Assembly (NCBI GenBank): GCA_964426725.1
Contig: CAYRRV010000004.1
Span: 81,391-145,390 of the forward strand
From: an uncultured Bacteroidales bacterium
Lineage (GTDB): Bacteria > Bacteroidota > Bacteroidia > Bacteroidales > CAYRRV01
Reading direction: 5' to 3'
Length of the DNA: 64,000 nucleotides
Shown here: one piece after another, positions 27,640-53,222 of the stretch
How positions within the stretch are numbered: the stretch's first letter is position 1
Layout of the letters: each line of letters starts with the position of its first letter
Notes under the pieces: generated by a model
What the model saw: the letters and a program-made list of their open reading frames with translations, nothing else
Told to the model about the DNA's origin: nothing
Databases searched by the model: none
Translations under genes and position numbers: made by a program

Positions 27640-27739
27640 GATAGAGCGATAGGGCGATGAGGCGAGATTGCGTGCGGACGTGATTGGGTAATTGCGTAAT
27701 TATGTGATCGTATTTGGGCGTGATTGTGTTATTGCGTAC
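27640..27739. repeat. Octamer-phased degenerate tandem array A (12.5 units of 8 nt)
   Basis: GATAGAGC GATAGGGC GATGAGGC GAGATTGC GTGCGGAC GTGATTGG GTAATTGC GTAATTAT GTGATCGT ATTTGGGC GTGATTGT GTTATTGC GTAC parses with no indel. It shares its 5' end (ATGATAGAGCGATAGGG) with the array at 52831. Confidence 0.85.
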
Positions 27740-27920
27740 TTTTTTAAAAATAATCGATATTTCATAAGCTTTTAACGCGTTACCCGGTAGTATGGTATCC
27801 AGTTTGTCAAATCCTTCACTATTCATTAAAAATCCCATGAAATACATGATTTCATTGTTGCAGGATGCTGTTTCATGGTACATGAGATCGCGAACAGGTA
27901 TGGAAAAGACAATGTAACAT

Positions 27921-27955
27921 AAAAAACCCTCTCACGAAAGTGGAGGGCTTTTCAG
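27921..27955 (-). terminator. Rho-independent terminator downstream of the WbaP-like gene (possibly bidirectional)
   Basis: CCCTCTCAC GAAA GTGGAGGG hairpin (27927-27948). On the minus strand it is followed by TTTTTT and on the plus strand by CTTTTC. Confidence 0.7.
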
Positions 27956-27983: not shown

Positions 27984-29450
27984 TTATAATCCCGATCTTG
28001 AAAAGACCGTTCGGATGGTTTTGAAAAGGAGTGTGAAATCCTCAATAATTGACCAGTTATCAATATAATTTAAATCCAGTTTCATCCATTTCTCGAAACT
28101 CACGCTATTCCGGTTTGGTATTATCTGCCAGGTACAAGTGATACCAGGCTTAACAGACAAGCGGCGCAATTGCCATGTTTCGTATTGTTCAACCTCACTT
28201 GGTAACGGGGGCCTTGGTCCTATCATAGACATCTCACCCCTGAAAACATTGAGCAACTGAGGTAATTCATCAAGTCCTGTTTTTCTTAAAATATGCCCTA
28301 TTTTGGTTATTCTTGGATCATTTGTCATTTTAAACACGGGGCCATCCATCTCATTTTTGGCTTCCAACTCCTTTCGTAATTGTTCAGCATTAGGAACCAT
28401 GGTCCTGAACTTGTATATCATGAATTTACGTCCTCTTTTACCCACTCTTTCCTGCTTGAAAAAGACAGGACCTCCCGGTGAATCGATTTTTATCGCGAGA
28501 GCAAGGAGTAATAATACCGGAGAAAGAAACAGTAACATTAACCCGGAAAATATCAAATCCGATAAATTCTTGAAAAATAACAATAAATTATCCGAGGGAA
28601 GATTGATATAATTCAAAACAGGCATTCCGGCAGGTTCACGTAAATCAATATCAAATGATTGCAGGGGTGATAATTCTGACTGCATCCTGAATATTACACC
28701 TATTTCCCTTGAAGTACTAACTATTTCTGCAACTTTCTCCCTGTCAATTTTCTTTTTACTGTAAACTATCTCGTCTATGATATCATGTTTCAGTAAACTT
28801 TTAATATTCACGTTTTCTGAAAGTATTTTTAGTTTACTTCCATACTTGGCCCTGATGAGTTTTGAGTTTGATAGTACCATGATAACCCTGAATCCCCACT
28901 CCTTGTTATGAATCAAACGATCGATAAAAAGATCAGAGTACTGATCGGCAATTACCAAAACGTTATGGAGGTTATGACCATGACTCCGGTGAACTTTAAA
29001 AACCTTATATGTTAATACCCTGTGCAGGTATATAGAAAGGTTGTTGATAATGAAAAACCCGGTCAGCATCAAAACACTAACTTCCGCCAAACCGAAAAGC
29101 AAACGGAAAATAAATAACATTACCAGGCCGATAATATTAACCTGGAATAATTCAATAAAAATTGTAAAATAGACAGTTGTTCGTGGTACCTTAGGTAAAT
29201 TGGTTAGTCTCAACAAGAAAGGATATAAAGCAAGAATTAATCCTGCCATTATCCAGTAATCCGAGTGGATTTTAGTAACTCCCGAAATAATCCTGAAAAG
29301 ATGCAACGACATCAGGAATGAAACCACAACTACCATCAGGTCAAGAATACCCAGACCAAACATGATAAGATTCCTGTAAGCGACATATTTTTGGGGAGTT
29401 ATTCGACGTAATTTCTCGAATTTCTTGATGAATAAACGAGCATATGGCAT
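27984..29450 (-). CDS. Polyprenyl-phosphate glycosyl-1-phosphate transferase (WbaP/bacterial sugar transferase family), the initiating enzyme
   Basis: N-terminal TM bundle and a central Rossmann-like region. The C-terminal domain PGGPVFFKQERVGKRGRKFMIYKFRTM...DPRITKIGHILRKTGLDELPQLLNVFRGEMSMIGPRP is the canonical Bac_transf motif. The ATG at 29450 is preferred over the GTG at 29549. Confidence 0.9.
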   Translation of the reverse strand: MPYARLFIKKFEKLRRITPQKYVAYRNLIMFGLGILDLMVVVVSFLMSLHLFRIISGVTKIHSDYWIMAGLILALYPFLLRLTNLPKVPRTTVYFTIFIELFQVNIIGLVMLFIFRLLFGLAEVSVLMLTGFFIINNLSIYLHRVLTYKVFKVHRSHGHNLHNVLVIADQYSDLFIDRLIHNKEWGFRVIMVLSNSKLIRAKYGSKLKILSENVNIKSLLKHDIIDEIVYSKKKIDREKVAEIVSTSREIGVIFRMQSELSPLQSFDIDLREPAGMPVLNYINLPSDNLLLFFKNLSDLIFSGLMLLFLSPVLLLLALAIKIDSPGGPVFFKQERVGKRGRKFMIYKFRTMVPNAEQLRKELEAKNEMDGPVFKMTNDPRITKIGHILRKTGLDELPQLLNVFRGEMSMIGPRPPLPSEVEQYETWQLRRLSVKPGITCTWQIIPNRNSVSFEKWMKLDLNYIDNWSIIEDFTLLFKTIRTVFSRSGL

Positions 29451-29861
29451 ATCAATTGGTTTTAGGTTTAGGTTTTTAAATTTAGGTTTTTTGTTTAAAA
29501 TCACTCTTACTATAATATTAAGTAATTGTGATTGTAAATAGACAAACACCTGGTAATTGATATTGTTGATGGTTTAATAATGATAAATTTTCTATTTTGA
29601 CCTACGGGTAAAATAATTGGACGAAATACTAAAATCAGGTTATTAATTTTTTTTCAATCTATATTCCGAGTTTTTCTTATTTGATTTTAATAAAAATAAT
29701 AGACCTTGAATTGCCTGATAGATGGAACAATCCTCATATTCATGTATTTAACCTGAGGCTCTATAATCAGACCAATATATTTGAATTGGATTAAACAATA
29801 ATTATTGTCAACTGTTTAAGAATAACCAAACCATTTACAAATAAATCGTAGAATAATCAAA

Positions 29862-30245
29862 ATGACCGAGTATACAGTAGATGAATCACCGAAAACACCA
29901 TATATCCACTTTGAGGATAACAGGTTTATTTTCCGGGGAAAATCAATCCCGGAAGATGCCCGGAAATTTTACAGGGTAGCAAGAGACAAGGCCAAAGATT
30001 ACCTTGAAGAAAGAGTAGGCAGCAAGACTCAGATAGAATTCCATTTTGAGTATTGTGATACCAGTACTGTAAAATGGATTGTTGATTTTCTGCGCATGTT
30101 TGAATCATGTCAGAAAAAAAATCCTGCAATAGACATTAGCGTGATCTGGAAATACGAATCAGATGATGAAGAAATGCTGGACCTTGGAGAATTTATTCAG
30201 GCACATTCCGTTCTGCCTTTTACATTTATCCCTGCAGATTTATAA
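29862..30245 (+). CDS. DUF1987 / SiaC-family protein
   Basis: TPYIHFEDNRFIFRGKSIPEDARKFY...IEFHFEYCDTSTVKWIVDFLRMF matches the DUF1987 pattern (TP.I.F....G...I.G.S.PE....FY ... YFNTSS.K). Confidence 0.75.
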   Translation: MTEYTVDESPKTPYIHFEDNRFIFRGKSIPEDARKFYRVARDKAKDYLEERVGSKTQIEFHFEYCDTSTVKWIVDFLRMFESCQKKNPAIDISVIWKYESDDEEMLDLGEFIQAHSVLPFTFIPADL

Positions 30246-30518
30246 ATAAAATCAACCTCTGCCCTGTTGTTTATTTTAAAATAAGCAAGGAACCAACACC
30301 AAGTTAGGTGTCACATCTGATATTTCCAACCTAATACTAATTATGTTAAATTAAGAGCCTACAAGAATTCTTATCCAAAAGAATATTCATCAATAAATTA
30401 TAATTATTCATCAGGATTCAAGATTATTAATCAATTATTTCCTGCCTCTCCTCAAATATTATTAACCAATAGACATTATTTCAGTATAATTAACTGAAAC
30501 CACGAAAAAACTATTATA

Positions 30519-50728: not shown

Positions 50729-51103
50729 TCAAAATTCTGTTTCCGCGCACTCTATAAACTCAAATTCAGCATTGAGCAGACTGGCATAATGTTCCCCGGT
50801 TTCCTTGCTGTCGTAATCTCCTTCCTCGTAATGCCACTTAACAACTACTTTTTTCACACTCTGGTTTACAGCAAAAGTCTTGATTAGATCATATATTTTT
50901 TTTGACGATGCCGTGTTAAAATATTCCATTTTGAACTGTATAATAATAGTATCCGTGTTCACATCATTAGCCCACTGGAATAACGGTTCATAAAAAACAT
51001 TCGGATCTTCCGGGAGAGAACGCCCTGCCATCATAATCTCCCCATTGGGATTAAAGTCGATTTGAGGCGTATCAACTGTTCCTTCTAAAATAATTCTGTC
51101 CAT
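50729..51103 (-). CDS. DUF1987 / SiaC-family protein (second copy in the window)
   Basis: MDRIILEGTVDTPQIDFNPNGEIMMAGRSLPEDPNVFYEPLFQW...MEYFNTASSKKIYDLI is a very typical DUF1987 sequence. The ATG at 51103 is preferred. Confidence 0.8.
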   Translation of the reverse strand: MDRIILEGTVDTPQIDFNPNGEIMMAGRSLPEDPNVFYEPLFQWANDVNTDTIIIQFKMEYFNTASSKKIYDLIKTFAVNQSVKKVVVKWHYEEGDYDSKETGEHYASLLNAEFEFIECAETEF

Positions 51104-51286
51104 TTTAATAACATTTGATTCGAGCATTACACAAAGTAAATAAAAAAAAAGGTAGAACAAGATATATTCCTTGTCATTTTTACTAACGATTTGATAAGTT
51201 AACAGAAAAACAGGATAAAAGTTTTATTTAATATCATCACCACGTGTAAAAGTTAGATAAGGGCATGATTATTAATTTTTTACAGT

Positions 51287-52696
51287 TCAATCCGCGCTCA
51301 TTCTCACTATTTTCGGGTAAAAGATGGCAATAATATTAACCAATTCTTCCTGTAATGCCATTACTTTCTCAATGTTTTTATAAGCAAATGGAGATTCATC
51401 AATATCTCCTCCAATTAATTCAATTCCCGCTTTTTTTAAAAAATGATCAAGATCTTTTTTCGAGAATCTTTTTTTGGCTTCATTGCGGCTCATCAACCGG
51501 CCGGCGCCATGAGAGGCCGAGTTAATGGATTCCATGTTCCCCTTTCCTGATACTACAAAGCCCGGCGTGGCCATTGACCCGGGAATTATCCCTGTAGTAT
51601 GAAGGCTTGCAGGCGTGGCTCCCTTGCGATGAACAATAGCCTCTTTCCCGTTATCCAGTTTTTCTTTCCAGGCGAAATTATGATGGTTTTCAATTACAAC
51701 GATGGGTTGTTCACCGAGAACTTTGGATATTTTCTGATGGATAATATAATGATTAGCCGATGCATAATCACCCGCGAGATTCATGGCTTTCCAGTATTCC
51801 TGTCCCTCGTTTGTGTCAAGATAAAACCAGGCAAGGTTTTTTGCCCCACTTGGAAGTTTACAGGACTGTTTCGCCAACCTGGTATAATATGAAGCGATCC
51901 CGGCGCCAAAATTTCTTGACCCGGAATGTGATAAAAGGGCTAAAAAGGGGCCCTTCCCAGGAAAAAGTGGGTGTTTATCATCCAATATCTCAAGAATGCC
52001 GAATTCGACAAAATGGTTACCACTTCCTGAACTTCCAAGCTGACTGTATGCCTTGTCTTTTAAAGATCTCAGTATTTTGATCTCTTTGAATTCCTGCCTT
52101 TCCATAACCTCGTGATCATTTCTAACCCTCATGTCCTTTTTGCCAAAATGAGTATTATTAAGAAGTATTGACTTTAGCCAATCCAGTTTATGGTTTAGTA
52201 TTTCAGTACCCAGGCTAAATACCGAAAGACACATCCTGCAACCGATATCCATTCCAACCCCGTATGGAATTACCGCGTTATCGACGGCCAACACCCCACC
52301 AATTGGTAACCCGTAACCCTGATGTGCATCAGGCATGAGTGCTCCCTGCAGCGCTATGGGTAACTGCATGGCCATATCCATCTGAATTCTCGAACCTTCA
52401 TCTATATAATCATCACCAAAAATCCTGTAATTTTTACGTTTTACCAATTCTATCTTTTCTGATAGTACCCCCGGCTTATTTTTAGATTCAACAAGTTCTC
52501 CGGCAATTTCCGACCAAACAGTATCTTCCCGGAAATCATCAGGGGACGATATCAATCTATCAAGTATTTCCAGTACTCCGGTTTTATTTAATTGTCCCCT
52601 GAACTGCTTATGAGCTGTTTTCATCACGACCGGGATAATATCTGCCGGGTAGCCTAAACGACGAAGATCCTTGTTCCGGATATTGAGTTTTTTCAT
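51287..52696 (-). CDS. rtcB: RNA-splicing ligase RtcB (3'-phosphate/5'-hydroxyl RNA ligase)
   Basis: MPDAHQGYGLPIGGV, GVDIGC-like GMDIGCRM, GSGNHFVEF, SHSGSRNFG, NHHNFA, HRKGAT, GIIPGSMATPGFVV and HGAGR. Confidence 0.95.
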   Translation of the reverse strand: MKKLNIRNKDLRRLGYPADIIPVVMKTAHKQFRGQLNKTGVLEILDRLISSPDDFREDTVWSEIAGELVESKNKPGVLSEKIELVKRKNYRIFGDDYIDEGSRIQMDMAMQLPIALQGALMPDAHQGYGLPIGGVLAVDNAVIPYGVGMDIGCRMCLSVFSLGTEILNHKLDWLKSILLNNTHFGKKDMRVRNDHEVMERQEFKEIKILRSLKDKAYSQLGSSGSGNHFVEFGILEILDDKHPLFPGKGPFLALLSHSGSRNFGAGIASYYTRLAKQSCKLPSGAKNLAWFYLDTNEGQEYWKAMNLAGDYASANHYIIHQKISKVLGEQPIVVIENHHNFAWKEKLDNGKEAIVHRKGATPASLHTTGIIPGSMATPGFVVSGKGNMESINSASHGAGRLMSRNEAKKRFSKKDLDHFLKKAGIELIGGDIDESPFAYKNIEKVMALQEELVNIIAIFYPKIVRMSAD

Positions 52697-52830
52697 TATT
52701 AGCCTGTTTTATTCAATTACAAATTCTTAATTATTGGTCACGATAAAACTTGTCACTCATACAAAACATTCAAATTTAATACTTTATTGCTGTCAAAAAA
52801 TTTAATTTAACCGGGTTTCGCGTCACAGAT

Positions 52831-52990
52831 GATAGAGCGATAGGGTAATGAAGCGATGAGGCGATGAAGCGTGATTGAGTAATTGTGTGATTGCGTAATT
52901 GAGTAATTGAGTTTGAATATAGAAACGCAATAACGTCCATACGTCCACACGCAAATACGTACACACGCAAACACGTCCACACGCAATAAC
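52831..52990. repeat. Octamer-phased array B: forward arm (11 units), a 6-nt spacer, then an inverted arm (8 units)
   Basis: Forward arm: GATAGAGC GATAGGGT AATGAAGC GATGAGGC GATGAAGC GTGATTGA GTAATTGT GTGATTGC GTAATTGA GTAATTGA GTTTGAAT. Spacer ATAGAA. Inverted arm: ACGCAATA ACGTCCAT ACGTCCAC ACGCAAAT ACGTACAC ACGCAAAC ACGTCCAC ACGCAATA AC, which is the reverse-complement orientation of the same unit family. Confidence 0.85.
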
Positions 52991-53003
52991 GGTGAAATAT
53001 CAA

Positions 53004-53222
53004 TTAAAATAAAGTGGGATGATTGTCGAACAAGGTGGGATGATCCTCTTCGAATGTTTTTAGAACGTGGGTGATGATAGCTTCCCTCATGAATTTTGAT
53101 CGATTTTTAACCTTGTACTTTTTGCAATACTGCTCAATGGCAGAAACTTCTTTATTGTTAAAAAGTACACTTTTCCGATTGATTCGTTTTAGATCATGGT
53201 TTTTCAGGTTTCTCTTTCTCAC
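53004..53222 (-). CDS. Small ribbon-helix-helix-like protein (72 aa) with a tandem C-terminal HPTLF motif
   Basis: RKSVLFNNKEVSAIEQYCKKYKVKNRSKFMREAIITHV has the strand-helix-helix pattern of CopG/Arc/MetJ proteins. The C-terminus is EDHPTLFDNHPTLF*. Confidence 0.45.
   Translation of the reverse strand: MRKRNLKNHDLKRINRKSVLFNNKEVSAIEQYCKKYKVKNRSKFMREAIITHVLKTFEEDHPTLFDNHPTLF

Follow-up and report, generated by a model that had tools for sequence, protein, structure and literature searches.

A two-armed array of degenerate octamers between a ribbon-helix-helix-like gene and rtcB in an uncultured Bacteroidales bacterium, probably a lineage-specific slippage-prone tandem repeat

Intergenic arrays of short tandem units, 7-8 nt in length, have been described in bacteria piecemeal since 1990, without a demonstrated function or origin. 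Here we analyze a two-armed array at positions 52831-52990 of a 64-kb stretch of DNA from an uncultured Bacteroidales bacterium (GenBank assembly GCA_964426725.1, contig CAYRRV010000004.1, positions 81,391 to 145,390). The whole stretch of 64,000 nt is referred to as the window, and all coordinates are window positions. The array lies between a small ribbon-helix-helix (RHH)-like gene and rtcB, and it is best filed as an octamer, GT-rich addition from Bacteroidota to the class of arrays already described. Among these are the intergenic G-rich heptamer arrays of Xanthomonas (GGGAATC) and Nostoc (GGGGAYT), which have no clear function (Rehm et al. 2015, PMC4692102). Many of the Xanthomonas arrays form convergent pairs, they are close to the open reading frame (ORF) on their 5' side, their length varies between close relatives and either strand is transcribed; the same authors refer to a suggestion that heptamer repeats are in excess in bacteria as a result of polymerase slippage (PMC4692102). 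In cyanobacteria, repeats of the short tandemly repeated repetitive (STRR) type form hairpins between hupS and hupL, whose function is given as unknown, with transcript stability or translational coupling put forward as possible roles (PMC2670836). Heptamer arrays of the unit TAACTGA are found in Beggiatoaceae, cyanobacteria and five Bacteroidetes; the closest relatives have shorter intergenic regions devoid of the repeats, indels are multiples of 7 nt and draft contigs break off within the arrays (MacGregor 2015, PMC4679880). Finally, GTTGCTYN x4 sites of Geobacter metallireducens come in 24 pairs, with the two members on opposite strands, and were interpreted without a test as sites for a regulator or for IHF/HU (PMC2700814).

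The array in the window has features in common with each of these systems and is identical to none. Like the Xanthomonas and Nostoc repeats, it has head-to-tail intergenic units, one G-rich strand, a convergent pair of arms, a nearby ORF on the 5' side and a variable length. However, the units of those repeats are 7 nt long, whereas the units described here are 8 nt long, GT-rich and far more degenerate, and as they contain few G runs, no G-quadruplex is expected. Besides, most Xanthomonas repeats occupy conserved positions in the two pathovars compared, whereas our array is missing from the nearest relative available; the copy number seen here is three arms, within 64 kb of genome only. The similarity to STRR lies in tandem short units making up inverted arms between two same-strand genes, but STRR are heptamers of heterocystous cyanobacteria, whereas here octamers are found in Bacteroidota and the arms pair poorly. 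Translational coupling is implausible in our case, since 134 nt separate the end of the array from the next start codon. The TAACTGA arrays are likewise intergenic, in some cases in Bacteroidetes, with unit-step indels, absence from relatives and contig breaks. Their unit is nonetheless a different one, and in Beggiatoaceae they are mostly a few nucleotides upstream of start codons in the sense orientation, which is not so here. The Geobacter sites are also tandem octamers in two sets on opposite strands, dispersed in one genome and missing from the sister species, but they have four units each, a variable distance within pairs, conservation that can be aligned by BLAST and an association with insertion sequence (IS) insertions.

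One more group of dispersed repeats invites comparison, namely repetitive extragenic palindromic (REP) sequences and the bacterial interspersed mosaic elements (BIMEs) built of them. They occur as dispersed extragenic inverted pairs, often after stop codons within operons, and roles in mRNA stability and termination have been proposed for them. The REP unit is an imperfect palindrome of ~35 nt and is linked to RAYT, the REP-associated tyrosine transposase. Our array resembles REP/BIME in being a dispersed extragenic repeat that forms an inverted pair after a stop codon. Its arms, however, are not palindromes, and they have an internal 8-nt phase that is missing in REP units. This phase takes the place of a palindrome of ~35 nt, and whereas a REP unit folds on its own on either strand, the AC-rich strands of the arrays fold at only -0.5 to -5 kcal/mol.

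The array is made up of two arms facing each other. Arm B1 (52831-52918) consists of 11 octamers that are GT-rich on the plus strand (G 30 / C 5), so that on the minus strand, the sense strand of rtcB, it reads as an 88-nt C-rich and G-poor tract (C 30 / G 5). Arm B2 (52925-52990) consists of eight octamers plus GT; its GT-rich strand is the minus strand (G 24 / C 8), which reads GTTATTGC GTGTGGAC and so on. The spacer ATAGAA (52919-52924) is flanked on both sides by the 3' end of a GT-rich arm. The 8-nt phase is pronounced: within each arm the period-8 self-match is 0.60-0.65, compared to ~0.2-0.3 at neighboring periods, and the best 64-nt segment of the two-armed array has a period-8 score of 0.703, whereas 100 dinucleotide shuffles of the whole window gave 0.498±0.021 with a maximum of 0.5625. 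Tandem Repeats Finder independently reported arrays of period 8/16 at 52848-52912 and 52933-52986. The units are degenerate, the longest perfect run being of two (GTAATTGA GTAATTGA), and yet they adhere to a common frame. Over 31 units, G occupies position 1 in 29 and C occupies position 8 in 21, position 7 holds a purine without exception, and positions 2-7 are nearly free of C. We also considered an age gradient along arrays, in which the 5' third would be more degenerate than the 3' third, and did not retain it; the respective values were 0.823 and 0.866 (p=0.057).

The only other comparable region of the window is array A (27640-27739, plus strand), a single-arm sister copy with a period-8 score of 0.625, found between the convergent genes wzc (plus) and a sugar transferase (minus); the two regions are the strongest period-8 regions of the window. 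The kinship between them is evident. Arrays A and B1 open with the identical 16-mer TGATAGAGCGATAGGG (0.67 matches are expected at <=3 mismatches), and the progression of units from GATAGRGC and GATGARGC to GTRATTGN is common to both. Altogether, there are three arms at two loci in the 64-kb window and none in ~6 kb of extra flank obtained from extension contigs. A scan of metagenomes for the head motif returned one match, in an unrelated coding sequence. We also considered a cluster of DnaA boxes, or a replication origin, and rejected it: only 6/9 matches could be seen by eye, and the local turn of the GC skew tracks gene orientation.

Length differences within the species come in whole units. 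We collected five same-species views of the locus (L122, L313, L312, L123 and L127) from the 90% RtcB cluster, including both NCBI metagenome-assembled genomes (MAGs) labelled Bacteroidota bacterium and Logan assemblies. One of them (L122) is identical to the window. In another (L313, GCA_048626115.1), exactly 32 nt, that is four units, are missing from B2, and B1 carries two substitutions. The third (L312, GCA_046538705.1) has one substitution in B2 and its contig ends inside B1. The two Logan contigs (L123 and L127), which come from two different samples, both begin inside B1 and have one extra octamer (+8 nt). The flanks of the array (13 nt and ~190 nt) are identical in all five views, and the overall divergence among the same-species assemblies is 0.05-0.6%. 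Indels in multiples of eight are a signature of replication slippage. Array A is unchanged in one same-species assembly (L124), while the head of the array is where two Logan contigs break off. Altogether five short-read contigs of the species (L123, L125, L126, L127 and L312) start or end inside the arrays, which fits assembly breaks induced by repeats or heterogeneity of the arrays within samples.

Comparison with a more distant relative gives a different picture. In the nearest other organism in the databases (sample ERZ16028321), RtcB is 72% and the RHH-like protein 74% identical to those of the window. Its rtcB-SiaC-ADH genes are downstream of an unrelated divergent gene (L121), and its RHH gene, which is on a contig other than that of rtcB, stands beside a KDO transferase gene followed by a GH3 gene (L308). 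Since RHH and rtcB are on separate loci in this relative, their juxtaposition is specific to the lineage of the window, and the array falls precisely where the two synteny blocks, KDO-transferase/RHH and rtcB-SiaC-ADH, meet. No period-7 or period-8 arrays were found in either of these loci of the relative. The neighbors of three further RHH homologues (L309-L311) differ and do not include an adjoining rtcB, and in all four contexts (L308-L311) no array is present beside the RHH gene. The intergenic gaps are 26-60 nt in L309-L311 and 26-69 nt among the RHH homologues elsewhere. These comparisons do away with a conserved RHH operator or rtcB leader element. At only 48% identity, the closest homologue of Wzc is too distant for a comparison of synteny around array A. 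The sequence-only reading, which had been made by a model from the letters and a list of ORFs, had offered the array as a possible attenuator, processing site, protein-binding array or RNA of its own. Comparison with relatives lends no support to an attenuator, processing site, RHH-binding array or separate RNA dedicated to this operon, nor is there an Rfam match. The conservation that it proposed to look for in RHH-rtcB intergenic regions did not materialize either, the gene order being missing from the nearest relative and the array from both loci. The same reading had named the outcomes that would favor neutral slippage DNA, and what was observed largely corresponds to them.

Based on these observations, we consider it probable, though by a good deal less than certain, that the array is a lineage-specific, non-coding, slippage-prone octanucleotide tandem repeat akin to STRR and to the intergenic heptamer arrays. 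It has the traits of an STRR-like class: 11 + 8 head-to-tail units, an intergenic location, strand asymmetry, convergent arms and whole-unit length variation. As the strain polymorphism shows, the array changes by replication slippage in whole 8-nt units. The layout of two arms would most likely result from the juxtaposition of independent arms or from an old inverted duplication. Any effect would probably be passive: on the RHH transcript, a GU-rich arm followed by a C-rich arm could act as a weak imperfect hairpin or spacer. Such a spacer would separate RHH from rtcB, the latter having a promoter-like box of its own downstream. In other words, the array probably does no more than separate the two genes as a passive spacer or weak hairpin, and most likely it is not a conserved RNA gene, an RHH operator or an rtcB-specific regulator.

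The two arms can be drawn as a long imperfect hairpin, and the sequence-only reading had suggested that a transcript or single-stranded DNA could fold in this way. Its example of pairing between the arms, complementary at 9 of 10 positions, is correct. The minimum free energy of the whole array region is -42 kcal/mol for the minus strand and -47 kcal/mol for the plus strand, and that of a minus-strand construct of B2, the spacer and the reverse complement of B1 is -35.4 kcal/mol. As a long imperfect hairpin, this fold is weakly supported. The z-scores for the two strands are only -1.0 and -1.2, and constructs in which the octamers of one arm were permuted reach -35.7±2.1 kcal/mol. Since the arms pair no better than these controls, we rejected a true hairpin; their complementarity is what GT-rich and AC-rich periodic DNA give when they face each other, and not a selected helix. 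Also, B2 pairs much better with the unlinked array A, ~25 kb away (-61 kcal/mol), than with the adjacent B1 (-35 kcal/mol), and modeled in this way, opposite-sense transcripts of array A and B2 may pair in trans. The energy of the hairpin per arm nucleotide is -0.46 kcal/mol here, as opposed to a median of -1.0 kcal/mol in other bipartite arrays among the matches listed. The permutation control is uninformative at those other loci because their units are near-identical.

We examined the spread of the motif by scanning for GTDATTGN x3, with one genome taken per species. At least 120 loci (L001-L120) were found in Bacteroidota, Chloroflexota, Acidobacteriota, phyla of the Candidate Phyla Radiation (CPR) and others. 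However, in viral contigs the motif occurs at 49 loci, whereas two scrambled units of the same composition occur at 65 and 65. Since scrambled units are just as frequent, the spread of the motif is no proof of homology, and we rejected the notion of a conserved GTDATTG family. In the 120 listed loci, Tandem Repeats Finder reports mostly periods 7 and 8 (71 and 157 arrays), and many of the 7- and 8-nt units are unrelated to each other. In several of these loci the intergenic DNA has a make-up of its own. In an Anaerolineales MAG (JALUWE01, L048, 1600-2070 and 2650-2880), it consists almost wholly of successive 7-9-nt arrays of differing units, and a similar array-on-array make-up is seen in L020, L064 and L069. 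Loci of the L048 type have a recurring 45-nt module, ACATCCTGAGCGGAGGGTGGACGAAGTCCACTCGTAGTCGAAGGAT, set between (GGGTAATT)n blocks, which looks like a composite dispersed repeat.

Despite this diversity of units, the orientation of two-armed arrays is strikingly uniform. Among the matches listed, the bipartite octamer arrays are convergent in 31/31 cases, the GT-rich arm being 5' on both strands, and so are 11/13 polar heptamer pairs, which were not selected by the search pattern. In the same set, the 5' end of the GT strand is nearer to a gene than the 3' end (median 8.5 versus 39 nt, 48 versus 28 arrays, p=0.017), the gene distances being based on simple ORF calls. The array of the window obeys both regularities, as its arms are convergent and the 5' end of a GT strand is near a gene. 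Location relative to genes is far less regular. Single arms among the listed matches are distributed over the four orientations of flanking genes in 17, 10, 10 and 25 cases, with 16 inside ORFs, and bipartite arrays are between co-directional genes in 14/16 cases, roughly as expected for intergenic DNA. As far as we could find, convergent polarity has been reported for Xanthomonas and has apparently not been stated before as a rule that holds across phyla. Another idea suggested by such loci is that the AC-rich arm, placed before an ATG, is a translational enhancer in the 5' untranslated region (UTR), a model for which is the ACAAUUAC repeat of the omega leader of tobacco mosaic virus (TMV). 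Many loci do adjoin a start codon, yet single arms are found in all four gene contexts and, in the window, the arm ends 134 nt before the ATG; we rejected this idea.

The array occupies part of a 307-nt intergenic gap. On the minus strand, the order is the RHH stop codon, 13 nt, the GT-rich B2, the spacer, the AC-rich reverse complement of B1, 134 nt and the ATG of rtcB. The upstream neighbor (53004-53222, minus) encodes a small RHH-like protein of 72 aa with a weak match to MobC_2. There are 106 homologues of 50-94 aa, the named ones coming from Bacteroidales/Bacteroidota, and this ORF is a real gene. The downstream neighbor is rtcB (51287-52696, minus), coding for the RNA 3'-phosphate ligase (Pfam RtcB, 9.3e-83). 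An ORF of 75 aa passes through the array (52776-53003, minus). ORFs exist across the arrays because the AC-rich strand is almost free of stop codons, and a Pfam search of the ORFs crossing the arrays gave no family match; the one in question is an artefact. Most of what the sequence-only reading had said of the locus holds: the sequence as quoted, the octamer phasing with two inverted arms, the relationship to 27640-27739, the position between a small RHH gene and rtcB on one strand, the 307-nt gap and the artefactual ORF. Two points have to be adjusted: the strand of the genes is the minus strand, and the distance to the RHH stop codon changes from 14 to 13 nt. We also rejected the possibility that the arms serve to put stop codons into every frame behind a gene: B1 and A do so, but B2, the arm directly after RHH, has none. 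With regard to transcription of rtcB, the consensus of the Bacteroidetes -7 promoter box is TAnnTTTG, and TAAATTTG (52771-52778, minus) fits it, 74 nt before the ATG and 52 nt downstream of the end of the array. Across the window TAnnTTTG is rarer than expected (53 seen versus 80±9), and it is enriched ~2.7-fold in the region 10-150 nt upstream of same-strand gene starts (8/53 versus a background of 5.6%). This enrichment, together with the position of the box between the array and the ATG, suggests that a separate promoter for rtcB may exist past the array.

Several observations weigh against the array being simply a product of slippage. The exact 16-nt head and the order of unit types common to A and B1 are unexplained by independent slippage and point to copying, conversion or mobility between the two loci. 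For the strict convergent polarity of such arrays across phyla no neutral explanation is established, and selection could lie behind it. The array is kept in all five same-species assemblies, that is, it is not rapidly lost. Moreover, the plus-strand RNA of array A looks like a terminator, folding at -35.1 kcal/mol (z -2.7) into a long GU-rich stem with TTTTTT 4 nt later. The last point leads to the idea of a functional terminator or insulator, a REP/BIME-like 3' element whose convergent arms stop transcription from both sides and end the RHH transcript before the rtcB promoter; each GT-rich arm, in its own sense, would fold through G-U and A-U pairs and be followed by a U-rich tail. We find this unlikely, even though array A does lie between convergent genes, B2 by itself reaches -21.7 kcal/mol on folding, with GUUUCUAUAUU after it, the transcript then enters the C-rich 88-nt tract, which is Rho-loading-like, and the TAnnTTTG box is placed between the array and rtcB. 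A scan for consensus intrinsic terminators found no site within 52831-52990 or at 27640-27745. A canonical one does exist at 27927-27947 (minus), 37 nt past the stop codon of the sugar-transferase gene (27984-29549, minus), composed of CCCTCCAC-TTTC-GTGAGAGGG followed by TTTTTT, which indicates that this genome uses ordinary GC-stem terminators. Single arms elsewhere occur in every gene orientation, including between divergent genes, and the relative lacks the element altogether. As for polarity, it is tempting to speculate that the strict convergence, the 5' end of the GT strand hugging a gene and the synteny junction could mean directional DNA synthesis at DNA ends, with two-armed arrays being scars of break or rearrangement repair. 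The candidates would be reiterative extension of 3' ends, or a GT-rich nascent strand being copied by fold-back, where DNA is broken or a fork has stalled; the ends would then be joined, similar to the head-to-head arrays left by telomere fusions. We give this origin only a slight chance. The cross-phylum polarity and the synteny-junction position provide a testable handle on how such arrays originate.

The remaining alternatives assign a function to the array in gene expression, and we regard each of them as improbable to a greater or lesser degree. A contingency locus for phase or graded variation, in which the number of units tunes rtcB expression as the heptanucleotides of hmw1A do in Haemophilus influenzae, would agree with the polymorphism of +1 and -4 units among strains, with the array lying upstream of rtcB and with the precedent of heptamer repeats in a 5' region (PMC12721329, PMC8262952). 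Simple sequence repeat (SSR) contingency loci of this kind resemble the array in their strain-level unit-number changes upstream of a gene, but they are perfect tracts in a promoter, 5' UTR or ORF. Our array is degenerate, with two units as the longest perfect run, and slippage rates should therefore be low; it is upstream of the candidate -7 box, where it would leave promoter spacing unchanged and be outside the 5' UTR; and array A, between two gene ends, has nothing to tune. These differences make a contingency locus very unlikely. Even smaller is the likelihood that we assign to a protein-binding DNA array, serving either the neighboring RHH protein as its operator or a nucleoid protein as a platform, the latter as proposed for Geobacter metallireducens. 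Many phased short repeats beside a gene of a DNA-binding type are what such an array would look like, and the Geobacter octamers, interpreted along these lines, offer a parallel. However, that proposal itself was never tested (PMC2700814). The array is downstream of the RHH gene and not at its promoter, arrays are missing beside RHH homologues in four other contexts, the unit interiors are highly variable, and a phase of 8 bp would put successive units on different faces of the helix. Hardly credible is the idea that the array encodes an independent structured or sponge RNA of ~160 nt. In its favor are the length of the non-coding region, the ability of the GU-rich arms to pair with themselves and the strong complementarity of A and B2 in trans. 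However, the fold z-scores given above are low, and Rfam 15 detects no family at the gathering score in the window, the best hit at E<=10 being mir-297 with 18 bits, where the cut-off is 90. Conservation does not extend beyond the species, and whole-unit indels are tolerated. In addition, a scan for sigma-70-type promoters found none in or directly upstream of the array, its only two matches being at or inside rtcB.

Returning to the array as a slippage-prone tandem repeat, two consequences are worth pointing out. In annotation, it should not be called an rtcB riboswitch, attenuator or small RNA, and ORFs crossing such arrays should be treated as artefacts. The array also breaks short-read assemblies, and it is usable as a strain marker of the variable number tandem repeat (VNTR) type for this uncultured Bacteroidota lineage. 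In its vicinity, the C-terminus of the RHH-like protein (53007-53050, minus) contains a tandem duplication, ...DHPTLFDNHPTLF, which at the DNA level is a direct repeat of ~21 nt adjoining the array. Finally, the window has two genes of the SiaC family (PF09345), at 50729-51160 (minus) and ~29862-30246 (plus), each near one of the two array loci; this closeness is probably a coincidence.

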